A DNA stretch of 64,000 bases from Promethearchaeota archaeon (GCA_029838195.1 JALGVJ010000001.1:1-64000); one strand, 5' to 3'; shown: positions 28,804-64,000, counted from the first letter of the stretch. Notes: a model not told the origin generated them from the sequence alone. Numbers and translations: made by a program.

Positions 28804-28853
28804 TAATTATTCTTAATTCTCTTTAATTTCTATATTATAACTTTTTTTCAATT

Positions 28854-29235
28854 CTCTAACTATGAATTTGGACAAATTGTCCTAGCATCCCGTCGTTAGA
28901 GGAAACGGGAAAGATCGATGATGCAACACTGGGATGAGAGGCCACCGCATGCGAGATGAGCTTGAAATAATAACGCCGAGAGGCGGGCGGAATTCGAGTA
29001 CCGCGTGAGATAAAGCTTGCTTGACGTGCTGCGACCGCACGCATCGCACTTGAAATTTTCCCAAGCGATCCCATTTTCTTAAAGTGTTAGTACTGACACC
29101 CAATAAGGAGGCAACATGTCCGAGGGAGAGAAAGAAAGAGCTCATGAAGAATGATTAGGAAAGACAATAAAAAACCCCTTTATTTTTGTGTTCATGTCTA
29201 ATTTTGTCCAAAATTGTTTTGACTAGTCGGCGACT
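28854..29235 (-). mobile_element. internally deleted IS607-family element (copy 1)
   Basis: Remnant TnpA HTH (LSLGHVASLLGVSTNTLRKWDRLGK). The end at 28854-28909 is 52/56 identical to 47063-47118; the other end has CGACTG and TGTCCAA motifs shared with copy 2. Confidence 0.78.
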
Positions 29236-29401
29236 GTTTAAAATTGAATTAATCAGACGTCTATCTCTGTTGGAATTTAAAGTAATGAAGAGAATGTTAA
29301 GAATATTTTAAACAAAATAAATTATAAAATTTTCAAAAAAAATGAAAAAAATGATAAATAATTTAAAAATAAAAAATATTTGAAATTTATCTCTATGGGT
29401 T

Positions 29402-43525: not shown

Positions 43526-44515
43526 ATGCCCGGAATCGAATGGGAGAAAGCAGAAGAAAGACCTGATAAAGCTCTTAAAGTAGAAGGACGCTTTCTCTTA
43601 GATCTAAGAGCTAAAGTAAATGACCTTGAAAAACAGCTCACCGAAACACGAAATAAATTAGCAGAAACTCAAAAAGATTTTGATACTACTACAAATAAAC
43701 TTGTCGAACTCTCGGGAAAACTCGACGATACAAACGCAGAACTGGAAAAAACTAGACAAAACCTGCGTGAAACCATCCAAGCAAAAGATCAACAAATTAA
43801 TGAGCTTACTCAACAAAATCAAGCCCTTAAAGGTGAAAAAGAATCGCTCACGGCAGAATTAAACACCCTTAAAGGTGAAAAAGAATCGCTCACGGCAGAA
43901 TTAAACGCCCTTAAAGGTGAAAAAGAATCGCTCACGGCAGAATTAAACGCCCTTAAAGGTGAAAAAGAAAAACTTCTAGCAGATATGGAAAAAATAAATT
44001 CTGAAAAAAATGCCCTTGAATCAGAGATTGAAAATTTAAAGAAGAATCAAGAAGCCCTCTTGGCTTCAAAAGACCAAGAACTTGCCTCTAAGGAACAAGA
44101 ACTTGCCAATTCTAACGAAAAAATCACTAATTTAGCAGCAGAAATAGATTCTTTAAAAGCACAACTTTCTGAATATAGTTCTCAGTTAGGAACGGCTTCG
44201 AGTTTGCAAGCACAATATGATGAACTAAAAACTAAATATGAAGAACTTGAAGCCATTCTCAAACAAAAAGATGAGGAATTAAAACAAAAAGATTTAAAAA
44301 TAAACGAGCTTAGAGCAGAATTAGATGAAATTAAAATGCCGGAAATAAGTCCGGCTACAATCTCAGCAGAAGAACGATTAACTTGTCCCATGTGTGGAGC
44401 AGTAGGTCATGATATTAAAAGCGTGGAAGATAAGACAAAAATCTTGAGTTATGTTGGTCATATTCCCATGTATGCTAAAAAGCACGTGTGTAAGAAATGC
44501 GGCTACGAATTCTGA
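43526..44515 (+). CDS. long coiled-coil protein with C-terminal Zn ribbon
   Basis: About 240 aa of heptads; CPMCG...CKKCGYEF. Confidence 0.85.
   Translation: MPGIEWEKAEERPDKALKVEGRFLLDLRAKVNDLEKQLTETRNKLAETQKDFDTTTNKLVELSGKLDDTNAELEKTRQNLRETIQAKDQQINELTQQNQALKGEKESLTAELNTLKGEKESLTAELNALKGEKESLTAELNALKGEKEKLLADMEKINSEKNALESEIENLKKNQEALLASKDQELASKEQELANSNEKITNLAAEIDSLKAQLSEYSSQLGTASSLQAQYDELKTKYEELEAILKQKDEELKQKDLKINELRAELDEIKMPEISPATISAEERLTCPMCGAVGHDIKSVEDKTKILSYVGHIPMYAKKHVCKKCGYEF
43823..43969 (+). repeat. 42-bp coding tandem repeat, 3.5 copies
   Basis: Unit GCCCTTAAAGGTGAAAAAGAATCGCTCACGGCAGAATTAAAC (ALKGEKESLTAELN), with one substitution among the copies. Confidence 0.95.
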
Positions 44516-44785: not shown

Positions 44786-46225
44786 ATGAATTTGGAAAAG
44801 CTATTTAAACCCTCTTCTATGGCAGTTGTTGGCGTCTCTAAGAGTAATCCCCTTAGCCCCGGCAGAATAATTTTAGTTAAAAATCAGTTTGAAATGAACG
44901 TGAAAGTACATGGAATCCATCCTAAAGGAGGTGAAATTGAGGGGATTCCCTTATATGAGAAGCTAGATGAGTTGCCAGAAATTCCCGATTTGTTAGTAAT
45001 TGCCGTTAGCGCCGAAGATACCTTAGAATACATTCAACAATGCGCTGATTTAAAAATTCCCGCTGCAATAATTATTGGGGGTGGATTTGCTGAAATCGGC
45101 GGTGAGGGAATGAAGAGACAAGAAAAACTCGAAAAATTAGCTTTCGATAACGATATTGCTGTATTAGGACCTAATTGCATTGGAGTATACGCTCCTCCCT
45201 TGGTGGATACCATTTTTCTCCCTACAGAACGCATTACACGCCCCCCAAAGGGAAGCGTCGCCCTCATAAGTCAATCAGGTGGGGTTCTCATTGACCAATT
45301 TTTTGTAAAATTTAAAGAGAGAAATATCGGCGTATCCACAGCTGTATCGATAGGAAATCGGGCAGTAGTGGATGAGACCATGTTATTAGAATATTTTAGC
45401 AAAGTGGATAAAGAAACGAGCAATATTGCTTTTTACTTGGAAGGTTTTAAAGATAAAAGGGCAAGAGATTTCCTAAAAGCTGCAAAAGAATCTGAAGATA
45501 CGGTGATTGCTTTTTTCGGCGGAATTACCGAACAAGGCCGAATTGCTACGCAATCTCATACAGCAAGTTTGGCAGGAAATTCGAAGATACTATTCGGAGC
45601 CTTAAAACAATATCATGTGATTCATCCACACTCAGAACGCGAACTGCTAACATATTTAAAAGTATATGATGTATTATCTCAGAAGAAACAACCTTTTGGA
45701 CAAAAACGAATTGTATACGGAAATGTTGCCATTCTTAGTGTTTCAGGCGGTCATGGTGTAATCTGTTCGGACATGCTTCAAAAATATGGTTTGACACCTG
45801 TACGATTTACAGAAGAAGAAAAAAAACAAATGCATGACATTTTAAATCCAGTGGCTCGAGAAATCGCCTCATTTAACAATCCCATCGATTTAACGGGGTC
45901 CGTATTGGATAGAGATATTGAAAACATGATTAGTTTTTTATCTGATATTGAACGAATAGAATGCATTATATTATTACTCTTGCCTTACCCACCCAATATT
46001 TCATTTCAAATTGGAAGAAGAATTGCAAATGTCGTAGTTAGTAAGAAAAAACCCATTATTGCATTTTTGCCCTACGTAGAAAAATACTCGCTTATTATTG
46101 AGTCTTTAGAGCTTAGCAATATTCCGGTCTTTCATGAAATTAAGGAGGCAGTCCAGGCTGTGGCAGCTCTGAAATTAAGAACCAGAATTTATAATTTAAA
46201 GAAAAATAATATTTTTTGGGAATGA
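44786..46225 (+). CDS. acdA: ADP-forming acyl-CoA synthetase alpha subunit
   Basis: LFKPSSMAVVG, GGFAE, GPNCIG, SQSGG, SHTASLAG (phospho-His) and NPIDLTG. Confidence 0.9.
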   Translation: MNLEKLFKPSSMAVVGVSKSNPLSPGRIILVKNQFEMNVKVHGIHPKGGEIEGIPLYEKLDELPEIPDLLVIAVSAEDTLEYIQQCADLKIPAAIIIGGGFAEIGGEGMKRQEKLEKLAFDNDIAVLGPNCIGVYAPPLVDTIFLPTERITRPPKGSVALISQSGGVLIDQFFVKFKERNIGVSTAVSIGNRAVVDETMLLEYFSKVDKETSNIAFYLEGFKDKRARDFLKAAKESEDTVIAFFGGITEQGRIATQSHTASLAGNSKILFGALKQYHVIHPHSERELLTYLKVYDVLSQKKQPFGQKRIVYGNVAILSVSGGHGVICSDMLQKYGLTPVRFTEEEKKQMHDILNPVAREIASFNNPIDLTGSVLDRDIENMISFLSDIERIECIILLLLPYPPNISFQIGRRIANVVVSKKKPIIAFLPYVEKYSLIIESLELSNIPVFHEIKEAVQAVAALKLRTRIYNLKKNNIFWE

Positions 46226-46339: not shown

Positions 46340-46598
46340 AAATACAATTAATTTTAAAATAGTTTTAAAAATGCCTTCATTAGTTTAAACACATGTACTT
46401 AAATTAATAATACGAATGAATAAAATAACAAATGATGAATAAAATATGAATTTCGCCCACTTAAATGAATATATGTATAATTTCATTGAGGAAGTTTGTA
46501 ATAAGATTGGTCCAAGAGAATCAGGCTCTGAGTCAGAGAAGCTGACTGGAGATAAAATAGAATCTGAATTAAAAAATTACTGTGATGAAACTTAGCAA
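46340..46598 (+). repeat. ~260-bp direct repeat, copy 1 (upstream region plus truncated 5' end of the M28 gene)
   Basis: Near-identical to 49919-50178. ATG 46446 encodes MNFAHLNE...CDET and stops at TAG 46593 where the intact copy has TGG. Confidence 0.93.
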
Positions 46599-47030
46599 TC
46601 ATCGGCGGTATAAGAAAGCACGCATCTTGGTTTTCCTTCGAGAAAAAAAGAAATTTCATGATAAAAAGAAGGTGGCTCTCTATGGAAGAATATTCAGCAC
46701 TCACCAGAAGGCATCGAGAGATTTAAATCGACAACTTGCCCTTCACACGGGATATTTTATGAGAAAAGGATATCACCTCTACAAGGCGTATTCAGACGTG
46801 GGCTCCAGGCTCAATGGCAAGTGGAAATCGCTGTTAAAATTACTACAAGATGCTACAGTTGGGAAATTTGACGTCGTGCTGGCGAGTCACAAGGACTGCC
46901 TGTCTCACTTCGGTTACAACTCGTTGAAGCTTTCTTGAGTAGCTGGAGCGTGTCTCTTGAAGCAATGTATCCTCATGTCGTGGAAGATACCACTCATGGA
47001 GAACTCATTACCAATTATAAAAAATTATAA
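46599..47030 (+). pseudogene. IS607 TnpA serine recombinase remnant
   Basis: ALYGRIFST (from YARVSS), DLNRQ, SDVGS, KDCLSHFG (from KDRLxRFG); frameshift into VEAFLSSWSVSLE...ELI. Confidence 0.8.
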
Positions 47031-47062
47031 GGTGGCGATGGGATAAGCCCTAGATTTTGGTA

Positions 47063-47452
47063 CTCTAACTATAAATTTGGACAAAATGTCCCATCATCCC
47101 GTCGTTAGAGGAAACGGGCGTTGATCCGAAGATCAATCTTTTTTTTTCCTTGCCATCTCGTTCCCATGTTTATTTTCATCCCGAATTGGGATTCCTTTTC
47201 CTCATTTGAGGGAAATACTCATGTTTTCTTTCCCTTACATTTCTTTTCTAATACTTCATGAAAGCTTTTTTCCCTATCCTCACCTCGAGAGCTTATCAGA
47301 AATGGTTTCCTCTTTTTGTTTTAAGGAAGGATAAAGGAAGCTTTCTATATAAATATCATGGGCCAATGCATTTTTTAAATTTATCAGGGGGGATTGATAA
47401 TAATTTTTAAAAAGTCCAAGGATGTCCAATTTTTTGCTAACTTGTAACGACT
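47063..47452 (-). mobile_element. non-autonomous IS607-derived element (copy 2), apparently non-coding interior
   Basis: Same termini as 28854-29235 and similar length (390 vs 382 bp), but an unrelated interior. Confidence 0.72.
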
Positions 47453-49918: not shown

Positions 49919-50178
49919 AAATACAATTAATTTTAAAATAGTTTTTAAAAATACCTTCATTAGTTTAAACACATGTACTTAAATTAATAATACGAATGAA
50001 TAAAATAACAAATAATGAATAAAATATGAATTTCGCCCACTTAAATGAATACATGTATAATTTCATTGAGGAAGTTTGTAATGAGATTGGTCCAAGAGAA
50101 TCAGGCTCTGAGTCAGAGAAGCTGACTGGAGATAAAATAGAATCTGAATTAAAAAATTATTGTGATGAAACTTGGCAA
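49919..50178 (+). repeat. ~260-bp direct repeat, copy 2
   Basis: Near-identical to 46340-46598. Confidence 0.93.
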
Positions 50179-51279
50179 GAAAAATATATCGCCCATCCAA
50201 CAGCATTTCTTGGAGGAGTGCGGTATGGAACTGTGCTCGTTTTTGTATCTATCATAATGTATTGGGTATCCTTATTGACTGATCTTAATATGATACAACT
50301 CGAAATTAGTTGGAGCTATATCTTTATGATTATTGGAATAATAATATTATTTTTAGCAGATTCTTATTTTGTTTTGGAAGTAATGCGGTATCATGAAGTT
50401 TTTGATTTTTTGTTTCCGAAAAAAGATTCCAATAATATAGTAGGTGTCATTTACCCCACCAAGGAGGTAAAGCAATCAGTTATTTTTTCAGCCCATCATG
50501 ATTCTGCTTATGAATTCAATCTATTCTACTATTTTAAACGTTTTGGACAGAAAACAATAAATTTTGCTTATATAGGAATTGTATTTATCTTAATTGTTTT
50601 AATCGCGAAATTTATATTAAACATTTTTAACGTTCGGGCTAACATGATCTTTTTAATATTAGGAATTGCTTTTCTATTTTTTTTACCCATATTTATACCT
50701 TATTTATTTTTTCATTCATATAAAAGCGTTCTGGGAGCATGTGATAATTTATCTGGGGTTGCTATTATTCTTGGAATAGCAAGATATCTTTCAGAAAATA
50801 AAAAAGATTTTGTGCCTCAAAATACAAAAGTTTATTTTGTTTCTTTTGCTGGAGAGGAGGCTGGCATAAGGGGTGCTAAAAGATATGTAGACATGCATTA
50901 TCAACAGCTTAAAAATGAAAATACGAAAGTTGTAAATATAGATTCTATTGCAACCCCTGAAACTATTTTAATTGCAACTAAGGAAATTATCATTGGTGTT
51001 AAACATGAAAAAGAGATATATGAAAAACTCTATGAAATAGCAAAAGAAAACGGAATTAATGGAAAGATGGTCCCTATCACCTTCGGAGCCACGGATGGCG
51101 CTGCCTTTAGTAAGAAAAAGATTGCTGCCACTTCGATATCTGGATTAGATTTAGAAAATGAATTAGTTCCGTTTTATCATACTCGTTTAGACACTCCAGA
51201 AGTAGTCGATCCTAAAGCCCTTGGATTAATAGTGAAAATGTGCGTAAATTATTTAAAGAGAATTGATATGGAATCATGA
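50026..51279 (+). CDS. membrane-embedded M28 metallopeptidase
   Basis: SAHHDS, GACDNLSG, GEEAG, NIDS, TDG and YHT; internal TMs. Confidence 0.88.
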   Translation: MNFAHLNEYMYNFIEEVCNEIGPRESGSESEKLTGDKIESELKNYCDETWQEKYIAHPTAFLGGVRYGTVLVFVSIIMYWVSLLTDLNMIQLEISWSYIFMIIGIIILFLADSYFVLEVMRYHEVFDFLFPKKDSNNIVGVIYPTKEVKQSVIFSAHHDSAYEFNLFYYFKRFGQKTINFAYIGIVFILIVLIAKFILNIFNVRANMIFLILGIAFLFFLPIFIPYLFFHSYKSVLGACDNLSGVAIILGIARYLSENKKDFVPQNTKVYFVSFAGEEAGIRGAKRYVDMHYQQLKNENTKVVNIDSIATPETILIATKEIIIGVKHEKEIYEKLYEIAKENGINGKMVPITFGATDGAAFSKKKIAATSISGLDLENELVPFYHTRLDTPEVVDPKALGLIVKMCVNYLKRIDMES

Positions 51280-62805: not shown

Positions 62806-62955
62806 AATTACTTTATTCCTCTTTTAGAGTTATTTTAGCCAATATTATTATATTATAAATAAAATGAATTTATTCCAATTAGATATTTAAATAAAAAAAA
62901 ATTAAATTTTGAATTGGAATTTAAAATTATTGAAATTTTTTCCGCGCATGATGAA

Positions 62956-64000
62956 TTATCTTTTAACTTCTGTAAGATCTGTAGCTTTGGTTTCCGGCAA
63001 TTTTATTAAAGTAATGATGATTGCAATTATACTACCAGGAATAACTGCTATGAGAAACAGCGTAGCAAAATCAATCCATAGCAAGAAAACAGCGAACAAA
63101 ACCGTCACTATTAAAAATAGAACAATGCCAATTGCGGTAGTAATTATTTGAACGCTAGCACGTGCCTCAGTTGGCGTTAATTCAAATATCATGGTAGTCG
63201 TTGTAGTTCCCGTGGTCCATAATGAATAAATGAAAATAGCGTAAGTAATACCAACAAGAATGATATAGGCTGTACCCAATGATACAAAATAAATAGAAAG
63301 AATCAAACATAAAGGAAGCGTCGTCAATTGAGTTATCAAGGCTCGTTTTCTCCCAAATTTATCCGAAATAAATCCAATGAGAAGTCCCCAGAAAATGCTT
63401 AGTACATACCGAATCAAATAAATTATATTCACTTGACTTAAATCATAGGTTTGGCTTAAAAAGGGTTGCCAATAGGATCTAAACGTCATTCCTGCCATTT
63501 GCCCAAGAAAACCGACAAAAAACACGAGTAAAATCATCTTAAAGTTTTTAAGCTTGAAAATGATTTTAAAGATATTCTCGGATTTTTCCTTGGTAGCTTG
63601 ATCTTTGAGTTGAGCTGCTTTATTAGCTTTCATGGTCAAATATACACTGGATTCCTTGAGTGTAAATATTATTAAAACGGTAACAATGATGCCAGCAATT
63701 AAGGGTAAATAAAACAATATTCGCCAATTAGGGAGAAAGAGTTCCCGGAATACTAAGACTAAAATCGCACCAATTAAACCTACAATCATTACGATCATGT
63801 TAAAGATTTGTCGTTTCTCTTTTGGGGCTTCTTCGCTTATTAATAACAATTGGATATCCGCTGCTAAAAAAAGATTTCCAATCCAAGTGCCTAACATGTA
63901 GGATAAAATATCGGTGGCAAAAATTACAAGGATGGCACCGATTGACATGCCAAGTACATTAACGATTAATGCTTTTTTCCTGCCAAATTTATCCGCGATG
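62956..64000 (-). CDS. MFS transporter (5' end outside window)
   Basis: Frame open to the window end (IADKFGRKK); second SDKFGRK motif. Confidence 0.88.
   Translation of the reverse strand, partial: IADKFGRKKALIVNVLGMSIGAILVIFATDILSYMLGTWIGNLFLAADIQLLLISEEAPKEKRQIFNMIVMIVGLIGAILVLVFRELFLPNWRILFYLPLIAGIIVTVLIIFTLKESSVYLTMKANKAAQLKDQATKEKSENIFKIIFKLKNFKMILLVFFVGFLGQMAGMTFRSYWQPFLSQTYDLSQVNIIYLIRYVLSIFWGLLIGFISDKFGRKRALITQLTTLPLCLILSIYFVSLGTAYIILVGITYAIFIYSLWTTGTTTTTMIFELTPTEARASVQIITTAIGIVLFLIVTVLFAVFLLWIDFATLFLIAVIPGSIIAIIITLIKLPETKATDLTEVKR

Follow-up and report, generated by a model that had tools for sequence, protein, structure and literature searches.

Why would two mini-elements that share hardly more than their ends preserve one of these ends as a structured module of 56 nucleotides (nt)? 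The question arises in a window of 64,000 nt from a Promethearchaeota archaeon (GCA_029838195.1, JALGVJ010000001.1; C1:1-64000 in a genome of 94 contigs, numbered C1, C2 and so on), in which 28854-28909 and 47063-47118 form a direct repeat with 52/56 identical positions (93%; repeat search of the whole window). A preliminary description had read these repeats as the right ends (REs) of two IS607-derived elements, here called el1 and el2, with a fold resembling the guide RNA of the nuclease TnpB. Our analysis identifies el1 and el2 as non-autonomous members, comparable to miniature inverted-repeat transposable elements (MITEs) or palindrome-associated transposable elements (PATEs), of an Asgard-lineage IS607-type family, whose RE module would probably act both as a site for the transposase TnpA and as a guide-RNA scaffold.

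A right end with sharp boundaries

The two 56-mers differ at positions 11, 24, 30 and 32, which belong to the spacer behind the terminus, the 3-nt loop that separates GGACA from TGTCC and the linker ahead of CCCGT. Read base by base, none of the four mismatches touches a pairing, just as had been claimed for hairpin H1 (CCCGT/ACGGG), hairpin H2 (GGACA/TGTCC) and the 7-nt match between the H1 loop and the terminus (Table 1). Both elements indeed read ACAG·TCG...GTTAGAG·flank on the minus strand (the dot marks an element boundary; ACAG at 29237-29234 in el1 and at 47454-47451 in el2), and their 3' flanks, AATTGAAAAAAAG for el1 and TACCAAAATCTAG for el2, are unrelated to each other.

The preliminary description had proposed a genome-wide BLAST search with the 56-mer, and had named shifting boundaries in other copies as a sign of error. 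The search returned about 16 places with a different flank in every case, and the similarity breaks exactly at CTCTAAC, which identifies them as true right ends with a sharp common limit. The limits of the left end (LE) and of the RE are identical in the other copies. Both el1 and el2 thus possess the two ends of the parent family and shared boundaries, occur in multiple copies and contain no intact gene, only a chimeric stub.

Table 1. Positions of el1, el2 and their parts within the 64,000-nt window
Feature	Position	Strand	Description
el1	28854..29235	-	380 bp plus AG core (29234-29235); internal-deletion copy, LE/tnpA 5' part joined to cargo-gene 3' tail/RE
el1 56-mer	28854..28909	+	CTCTAAC 28854-60; GGACA 28870-74; TGTCC 28878-82; CCCGT 28889-93; GTTAGAG 28895-28901; ACGGG 28905-09
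el1 RE module	28854..28909	-	H1 CCCGU/ACGGG, loop CUCUAAC; H2 GGACA/UGUCC; terminus GUUAGAG pairs with H1 loop (predicted pseudoknot)
el1 cargo-gene 3' remnant	28910..29056	-	zinc-finger and RHSNSA region, out of frame in el1; homology to C23:110-303
el1 left end	29049..29233	-	two (T/A)GRACA motifs 10 bp apart, first tnpA codons (MerR-type helix-turn-helix stub)
el1 5' flank ACAG	29234..29237	-	conserved; AG crossover core plus AC; candidate target-adjacent motif or target motif
el1 3' flank AATTGAAAAAAAGTTATAAT	28834..28853	-	would-be guide; first 16 nt occur once in the genome
el2	47063..47452	-	388 bp plus AG core; member of a non-coding mini family that has only the ends in common with el1
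el2 RE module	47063..47118	-	H1, H2 and pseudoknot pairings all intact
el2 left end TCGTTACAAGTTAGC...TTGGACATCCTTGGAC	47400..47450	-	two TTGGAC motifs 10 bp apart
el2 3' flank TACCAAAATCTAGGGCTTAT	47043..47062	-	would-be guide; 16-mer unique in the genome

Full-size relatives and their cargo protein

Right ends of the same kind lie at the contig ends C23, C76, C70 and C72, where the upstream frame reads ...CAAC...CDAC...RHSNSARLSALLL and then stops about 80 nt before the terminus. Contig C5 starts inside a copy and carries a tnpA stub fused to 220 residues of a different protein. This fragment matches 19 proteins of 879-943 amino acids (aa; two of about 1190 aa) with E values of 1e-52 to 1e-69. 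Scans of genomes and metagenomes revealed the complete arrangement at seven loci (L050-L054, L059, L061): a tnpA of about 200 aa is directly followed, on the same strand, by a gene of about 900 aa, referred to here as the cargo gene. The tnpA products of L051 and L053 match Resolvase with 70-72 bits at residues ~70-199 and MerR with 37-43 bits at residues 8-46. In 15/15 loci, the cargo gene stops 0-30 nt upstream of H1 or inside it, and the full elements end in ...ATAG(T/A)TAGAG. The cargo-bearing contigs are labelled as metagenome-assembled genomes of Heimdall-, Hel-, Borr- and Sif-archaeota, with one of Bathyarchaeia. Among the papers searched, none describes an Asgard IS607 family whose TnpB-like gene is about 900 aa long.

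None of the 19 cargo homologues contains a Pfam domain above cut-off, the TNB zinc ribbon reaching 12-17 bits against a cut-off of 26.3. An AlphaFold model from the 19-sequence alignment, of modest quality (predicted local distance difference test, pLDDT, 67), matched only Cas12f, Cas12m, ISFba1 TnpB (8iaz), ISDra2 TnpB (8h1j), Fanzor2 and other Cas12 proteins in Foldseek (probability ~1.0, E 3e-6 to 5e-3, TM score 0.15-0.36). According to this model, the cargo protein is a TnpB/Cas12-fold protein of 880-940 aa. Its zinc motif CxxC...CxxC is invariant in the homologue alignment. The RuvC motifs, assigned by motif position and not from a solved structure, read G-x-D-F-N-R, W-D-S/A-I-G-G and R-H-S-N-S-A, and D709, D818 and H920 are invariant in the 17-18 ungapped sequences among the 19 homologues. 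The preliminary description, which would have fallen had no tnpB-bearing element shared this end, was thus borne out in part: a TnpB-like gene does carry it, at the four contig ends here and at full length in relatives. The gene is not an ordinary tnpB of about 400 aa, as its product is 880-940 aa long and has a D-D-H set of RuvC residues.

Several further loci came to light. A PF07282 match on C38 was considered as a cargo gene and rejected as a single weak, unrelated match; this contig holds a weak TNB zinc-ribbon match at 62896-63063 within an open frame of 331 aa. At C46:6137-6310, the DNA is 67% similar to the 3' region of the cargo gene. Both loci may represent other TnpB-like families of the same genome. 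Six loci on metagenome and Borr-/Sif-archaeota contigs (L055, L056, L057, L060, L067, L068) have the large gene without tnpA, next to the same upstream gene across several assemblies, and keep an intact RE module of the CTCTATC/GATAGAG type. These copies may be vertically inherited or domesticated.

Two kinds of mini-element

Within el1, 29049-29237 is about 90-92% identical to the LE and first tnpA codons of copies on C3, C62, C24 and C5, and 28854-29056 matches the RE side of C23, C76, C72 and C70 at 82-87% identity. Judged by these similarities, el1 is a deletion chimera of an LE/tnpA stub and a cargo 3' tail. Its sole open reading frame (ORF; 28882-29145, minus strand) encodes a MerR-type helix-turn-helix stub (23 bits, below cut-off) and then runs out of frame into the cargo remnant. 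A second mini copy of the el1 type with matching boundaries measures 238 bp (C72:176874-177111). The congener G001 has the syntenic locus without el1, with coding regions 71-78% identical; the exact empty site ACAG·AATTG was sought there, and the intergenic DNA is too diverged to read. Empty sites would read ...TTTTAAACAG·AATTGAAAAAAAG for el1 and ...TATTATACAG·TACCAAAATCTAG for el2.

With el1, el2 shares only about 45 nt of the LE and exactly the 56-nt RE, and its resemblance to subfamily A ends precisely at the 5' base of H1. The el2 interior is non-coding, with no ORF of at least 50 aa on the sense (minus) strand inside the element, and is 88-92% conserved among at least four other copies. 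Members of this family are C35:75908-76302 (complete, 88%), C26:68915-end, C47:1-280 and copies on C39, C3 and C77. Conservation in subfamily B is 96.5% for the module versus 90.9% for the interior, a small difference. The arrangement of tnpA followed by the cargo gene is absent from el1 and el2, which agrees with their description as TnpB-less, non-autonomous IS607 derivatives: el1 has kept the tnpA stub and the cargo 3' tail, el2 only LE and RE.

Ends, crossover and target

All nine LEs of subfamily A start ACAG·TCGCCGACTAGTC..., while the five of subfamily B read (T/G)ACAG·TCGTTAC..., with ACAG in 3/5 and the decayed variants ATAG and ACCG in the other two. The metagenomic full-length elements have ACAG 5' of the LE in 6/6 cases, in the form ACAG·T....ACTAGT....AAACTTGGACA. 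ACAG stays the same even across clades with cargo proteins of only 35-40% identity, while the first bases of the element vary. On the other side, T directly follows the RE in 37/42 distinct flanks. The tips of LE (TCGCCGACTAGTC...) and RE (...ATAGTTAGAG) are unrelated, so the elements lack terminal inverted repeats; nor is a target-site duplication visible in the flanks of 16 copies.

An AG precedes each LE and closes each RE (GTTAGAG·). The AG crossover core of the preliminary description is a plausible candidate: the two junctions share AG, and on the 5' side of the LE the whole ACAG is conserved. As a target-adjacent motif (TAM), ACAG is a good candidate, and it could equally be a target preference of TnpA. 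At C26:68903-68921 (L007), an el2-type RE adjoins the first 12 nt of an LE, GTTAGAG·TCGCCGACTAGT, with a single AG in common, before the LE breaks off. This sharing is what exchange at AG would produce, with insertion at the ACAG·T junction of a copy already in place; the C26 junction could be either such a nested insertion into an older copy or the relic of a circle or tandem junction.

The LEs contain motif arrays (TGGACAAAATTAGACA in el1, TTGGACATCCTTGGAC in el2, GAACAAACTTGGACA in L052), of which the RE holds an inverted copy, TGTCCAA(A/G)TTT, extended to ...TTTGTTC in some lineages. The GGACA/TGTCC hairpin of the preliminary description consequently needs a second label: it pairs as H2, and it is also part of the predicted TnpA motif array that LE and RE have in common in inverted form. 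All TnpA-type motifs are found in roughly the last 30 nt of the RE; H1 and its loop are 35-56 nt from the end and have no LE counterpart. A decayed tnpA-only copy on C3 has the terminus and two TGTCCA repeats and lacks H1. As H1 lies further in without an LE counterpart and the C3 copy does without it, we read the RE module as probably bifunctional: its outer 30 nt would be a TnpA site, on which an RNA fold is superimposed.

In one genus (G130, G142, G133; L082, L083, L088), the modules end in GTTAGTA instead of GTTAGAG, so that the outer two pairs of the pseudoknot and the final AG are lost. The boundary may have shifted, the crossover core may differ, or the modules may have decayed.

Covariation of the predicted RNA fold

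We aligned 23 right ends, each of 230 nt, from copies with a gene. Their nucleotide conservation sets in precisely at H1, and RNAalifold, unaided, selected both the loop-terminus helix and H2. Only H1 and H2 went into a covariance model, so the pseudoknot counts below are not fitted; the model found the module in 22/151 genomes of the class, with up to 24 copies per genome. It scores 74.7 bits for the RE of el1, 76.5 for that of el2 and 80.9 for the best copy adjoining a full-length gene.

Among 44 distinct modules, 96.9% of cells are paired, compared with 25-46% when the partners are slid. Double changes occur in 8/17 pairs against a shuffle mean of 2.9 (0/500 shuffles reach 8), and the covariation score is 0.174 against 0.074 in the control. 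H1 exists as CCCGT/ACGGG, CCCAT/ATGGG, CGGGT/ACCCG and GGGGT/ACCCC, plus U.G forms. The pseudoknot exists as CTCTAAC/GTTAGAG and CTCTATC/GATAGAG, which combine with the H1 types in six ways. Because both pseudoknot states are found with each H1 type, the concordant switch appears to have occurred more than once or to have been exchanged between elements. The pseudoknot helix is 96-98% paired, with double changes at 2/7 pairs in 12 sequences on several H1 backgrounds; in G005, A or G occupies the second loop position, facing U. H1, H2 and the loop-terminus match, from which the preliminary description had built its pseudoknot, all covary and fit the nexus pseudoknot of IS607/IS605 guide RNAs. 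The wobbles in H1 and H2 comprise 15 G.U against 1 A.C, an excess that points to a constraint on the sense strand.

The 16-nt flanks of el1 and el2 are each unique, and we found no second target for them in the genome. Any guides read from these flanks would be site-specific, as the homing model requires.

Proposed mechanism

The autonomous form consists of ACAG·LE, tnpA (MerR-type helix-turn-helix plus serine recombinase), an 880-940 aa TnpB/Cas12-fold gene and RE·T, in this order. As DNA, TGTCCAA(A/G)TTT is the inverted copy of helically phased GRACA motifs of the LE and the expected TnpA site, with exchange at AG. As RNA of the cargo-gene strand, the module would form a nexus-like H1 whose loop pairs with the last 7 nt of the element, with H2 between. 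It would make up the 3' part of a guide-RNA scaffold, perhaps the entire scaffold, and the guide would be the host sequence just past the end. After excision by TnpA, the large nuclease loaded with this RNA would recognise the vacated ACAG-plus-flank site and recut it, which would favour restoration of the element.

With their intact modules and unique flanks, el1 and el2 could supply guides in trans, provided that they are transcribed and an active cargo protein is present. Both start shortly downstream of a same-strand gene (168 nt for el1, 53 nt for el2), and sense read-through transcription from these genes is thus possible. A more specific proposal, tentative in our view, is that the module of 53-76 nt is already the complete scaffold of the D-D-H protein. 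The family would then be an intermediate between TnpB, a small protein with a long RNA, and Cas12, a large protein with a short pseudoknotted handle, and the mini copies would be distributed trans guides.

Evidence against a guide scaffold and competing explanations

A number of observations weigh against the guide-scaffold reading. In place of the canonical D-E-D triad, the cargo protein has D-D-H, which makes cleavage uncertain. BLAST and tblastn found no intact tnpA or cargo gene in the assembly of this genome, only cargo pieces (N-terminal on C5, middle on C7, C-terminal at contig ends); assembly or binning probably dropped GC-rich element interiors. Relatives, too, contain more modules than cargo genes, with 24 modules and one fragment in G029 and 16 and two fragments in G159, and several of them have many modules and no detectable cargo gene, such as G023 with 18 modules and none found. 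RNAalifold detected no conserved structure upstream of H1 in the 23 ends, Rfam 15 returned no family at E <=1 for five loci including el1, and the 207-nt end of el1 folds no better than shuffles (z = -1.4); el2 does not fold well either (z = -1.2), and the full copy on C23 does (z = -3.6). The module, at 53-76 nt, is also short in comparison with the ~130-190 nt of known guide-RNA scaffolds.

Further points against this reading concern the pairings themselves. The pseudoknot covaries at only 2/7 pairs, and its one-sided changes are mostly mismatches (2 G.U against 6 A.C and 6 other). H1 and the pseudoknot do not vary at most of their positions, which implies that recognition of the sequence itself, by a protein or at the DNA level, is also at work. 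The module is near-palindromic as DNA and scores on the reverse strand too, and the A-T to T-A switch would also be expected of an inverted repeat that evolves together with the protein bound to it. Many unrelated mini families in other genera have only 53-65 nt in common with full copies, which is how a minimal TnpA substrate would look.

Several of these points are what one would predict if the 56-mer were solely a DNA substrate of the serine transposase, with hairpins and loop/terminus repeat serving as protein-binding repeats or synaptic architecture, retained as the minimal mobilisable RE. The inverted LE motif array in the RE and the very strong sequence conservation of the module fit this explanation, as does the binding of IS607-family TnpA to short motifs arrayed as far as 60 bp or more from an end (PMC6188088). 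We nevertheless consider it unlikely. In H1, the flips of CCC/GGG to GGG/CCC with pairing kept are hard to square with base-specific protein contacts, and H1 with its CTCTAAC loop has no counterpart in the LE. H1 also lies outside the array of TnpA-type motifs, which reach no further than about 30 nt from the end, similar to the RE motifs of IS1535 at bp 10-28 (PMC6188088), and the decayed C3 copy kept terminus and repeats without it. The 15:1 ratio of G.U to A.C in H1 and H2 indicates a constraint on one strand.

Covariation and wobble bias would also fit a real RNA structure on the cargo strand that serves the mRNA, by stabilising or defining its 3' end or by controlling cargo or tnpA expression, and that is a passive leftover in the mini-elements. 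The module adjoins or overlaps the cargo stop codon, it is far shorter than known guide-RNA scaffolds, and the His at the RuvC-III position could mean that the cargo protein is not a nuclease. This alternative appears rather improbable to us: the loop partner is exactly the last 7 nt of the transposon, a limit that a guide scaffold respects (PMC10711439) and a generic 3'-untranslated element need not, and the module is conserved in gene-less mini copies of many genomes. Chance similarity or a low-complexity repeat, suggested by the AT-rich surroundings and the many weak two-copy repeat families in the window, is refuted by about 16 copies with sharp common boundaries and by a module that recurs in 22/151 genomes and is linked to tnpA and a conserved cargo gene.

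Surroundings of el2

A decayed IS607-type tnpA fragment occupies 46582-47030 on the plus strand. It consists of the catalytic domain only (Resolvase, 20 bits and below cut-off for 46582-46938), with a frameshift near 46938 and both ends truncated. El2 runs on the other strand, and the remnant stops about 30 nt short of its right end; the would-be guide of el2 is contained in the 48 nt of unassigned sequence (47015-47062) that follow the remnant. A segmental duplication, 45431-45528/46352-46598 versus 49827-49924/49932-50178 with 90-96% identity, copies a piece of a 479-aa gene (44786-46225) and the 5' end of a 417-aa gene (50026-51279). As its second block ends at 46598, exactly where the tnpA remnant starts, a transposon-associated rearrangement is suggested.

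At 47120-47147 (plus strand), just inside the RE module of el2, GTTGATC-CGAA-GATCAAC makes up a fully paired hairpin of 7 bp closed by four loop nucleotides, which read UUCG on the sense strand. Nine consecutive T follow on the plus strand, and every el2-type copy has kept the feature. It might stop antisense transcription that reads in, or it might replace a scaffold stem; a terminator scan of el2, of a type unsuited to archaea, returned nothing relevant. Elsewhere in the window, 43823-44011 holds four tandem 42-nt repeats (up to 98% identical) within a 329-aa coiled-coil ORF, encoding LKGEKESLTAELNA repeats.

Implications and comparison with known systems

If the module is a working guide scaffold, the homing logic of TnpB extends to archaeal IS607 elements with a much larger, unannotated TnpB/Cas12-fold protein, and mini-elements of the serine-recombinase family can carry guides, which has so far been proposed for IS605 PATEs only. 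It would also offer a very short (~55 nt), well-delimited scaffold with natural compensatory variants, and would bear on protein growth and RNA shrinkage on the way from TnpB to Cas12, within the archaeal lineage nearest to eukaryotes. Should the module be no more than a TnpA substrate, el1 and el2 belong to an ordinary MITE family.

In the guide RNAs of IS605 and IS607 elements, a pseudoknot between a stem-loop and the guide-abutting nucleotides is conserved and essential, as described for ISDra2, ISXfa1 and CboIStron (PMC10711439; 10.1101/2023.11.20.567912; PMC11061315), and IS607 systems have a fixed right-flanking nucleotide (PMC10711439; 10.1101/2023.11.20.567912). The Asgard family resembles these IS607 TnpB systems (ISXfa1, PMC10711439; CboIStron, 10.1101/2023.11.20.567912; ISFba1 right-end RNA, PMC11061315, PDB 8iaz) in its serine-recombinase tnpA upstream of a RuvC-fold gene. 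It also shares with them a module that runs from the cargo 3' end to the RE with a predicted stem-loop/guide-abutting pseudoknot, and a nearly fixed right-flanking nucleotide, here T. As in ISFba1, a conserved motif 5' of the LE ends in the presumed crossover dinucleotide, the TAM of ISFba1 being AGGAG and the Asgard motif ACAG. It differs in the size of the cargo protein (880-940 aa versus ~390-410 aa), the D-D-H residues and the lack of a Pfam domain above cut-off, and in a conserved putative RNA module of 53-76 nt versus ~150-190 nt. Unlike ISXfa1, it has the core AG instead of GG, and its hosts are archaea.

PATE-like mini-elements of the IS200/IS605 type are gene-less and encode guide RNAs that need TnpB in trans (Meers et al., 10.1101/2023.03.14.532601). 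Like them, el1 and el2 are gene-less, multi-copy elements that keep both ends and a putatively RNA-encoding RE, with TnpA and TnpB proposed to act in trans. PATEs depend on single-stranded DNA, a Y1 transposase and DNA hairpins, whereas the el1/el2 family belongs to a serine recombinase and double-stranded DNA, and it comprises two kinds of mini-element, one by internal deletion and one with an unrelated interior.

The TnpA motifs in the RE of IS1535 are helically phased, at a distance of 10-28 bp from the junction (Chen et al. 2018, PMC6188088). With IS607 and IS1535, the Asgard elements have in common the absence of terminal inverted repeats and target duplication, the same dinucleotide at both ends and in the target, and sub-terminal motifs about 10 bp apart, which in the RE reach up to ~30 bp from the junction (PMC6188088). 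Motif, (T/A)GRACA, and core, AG, are different, and the target, ACAG·T, is seemingly more specific than the GG of IS607.

In the TnpB branch RIIIr-4, which is linked to ribbon-helix-helix (RHH)/MazE-like antitoxins, His replaces the RuvC-III Asp (Altae-Tran et al. 2023, PMC10691335). The Asgard cargo protein likewise has a RuvC-III His, conserved throughout the family. Unlike RIIIr-4 as described, it is linked to an IS607-type tnpA and exceeds twice the usual size.

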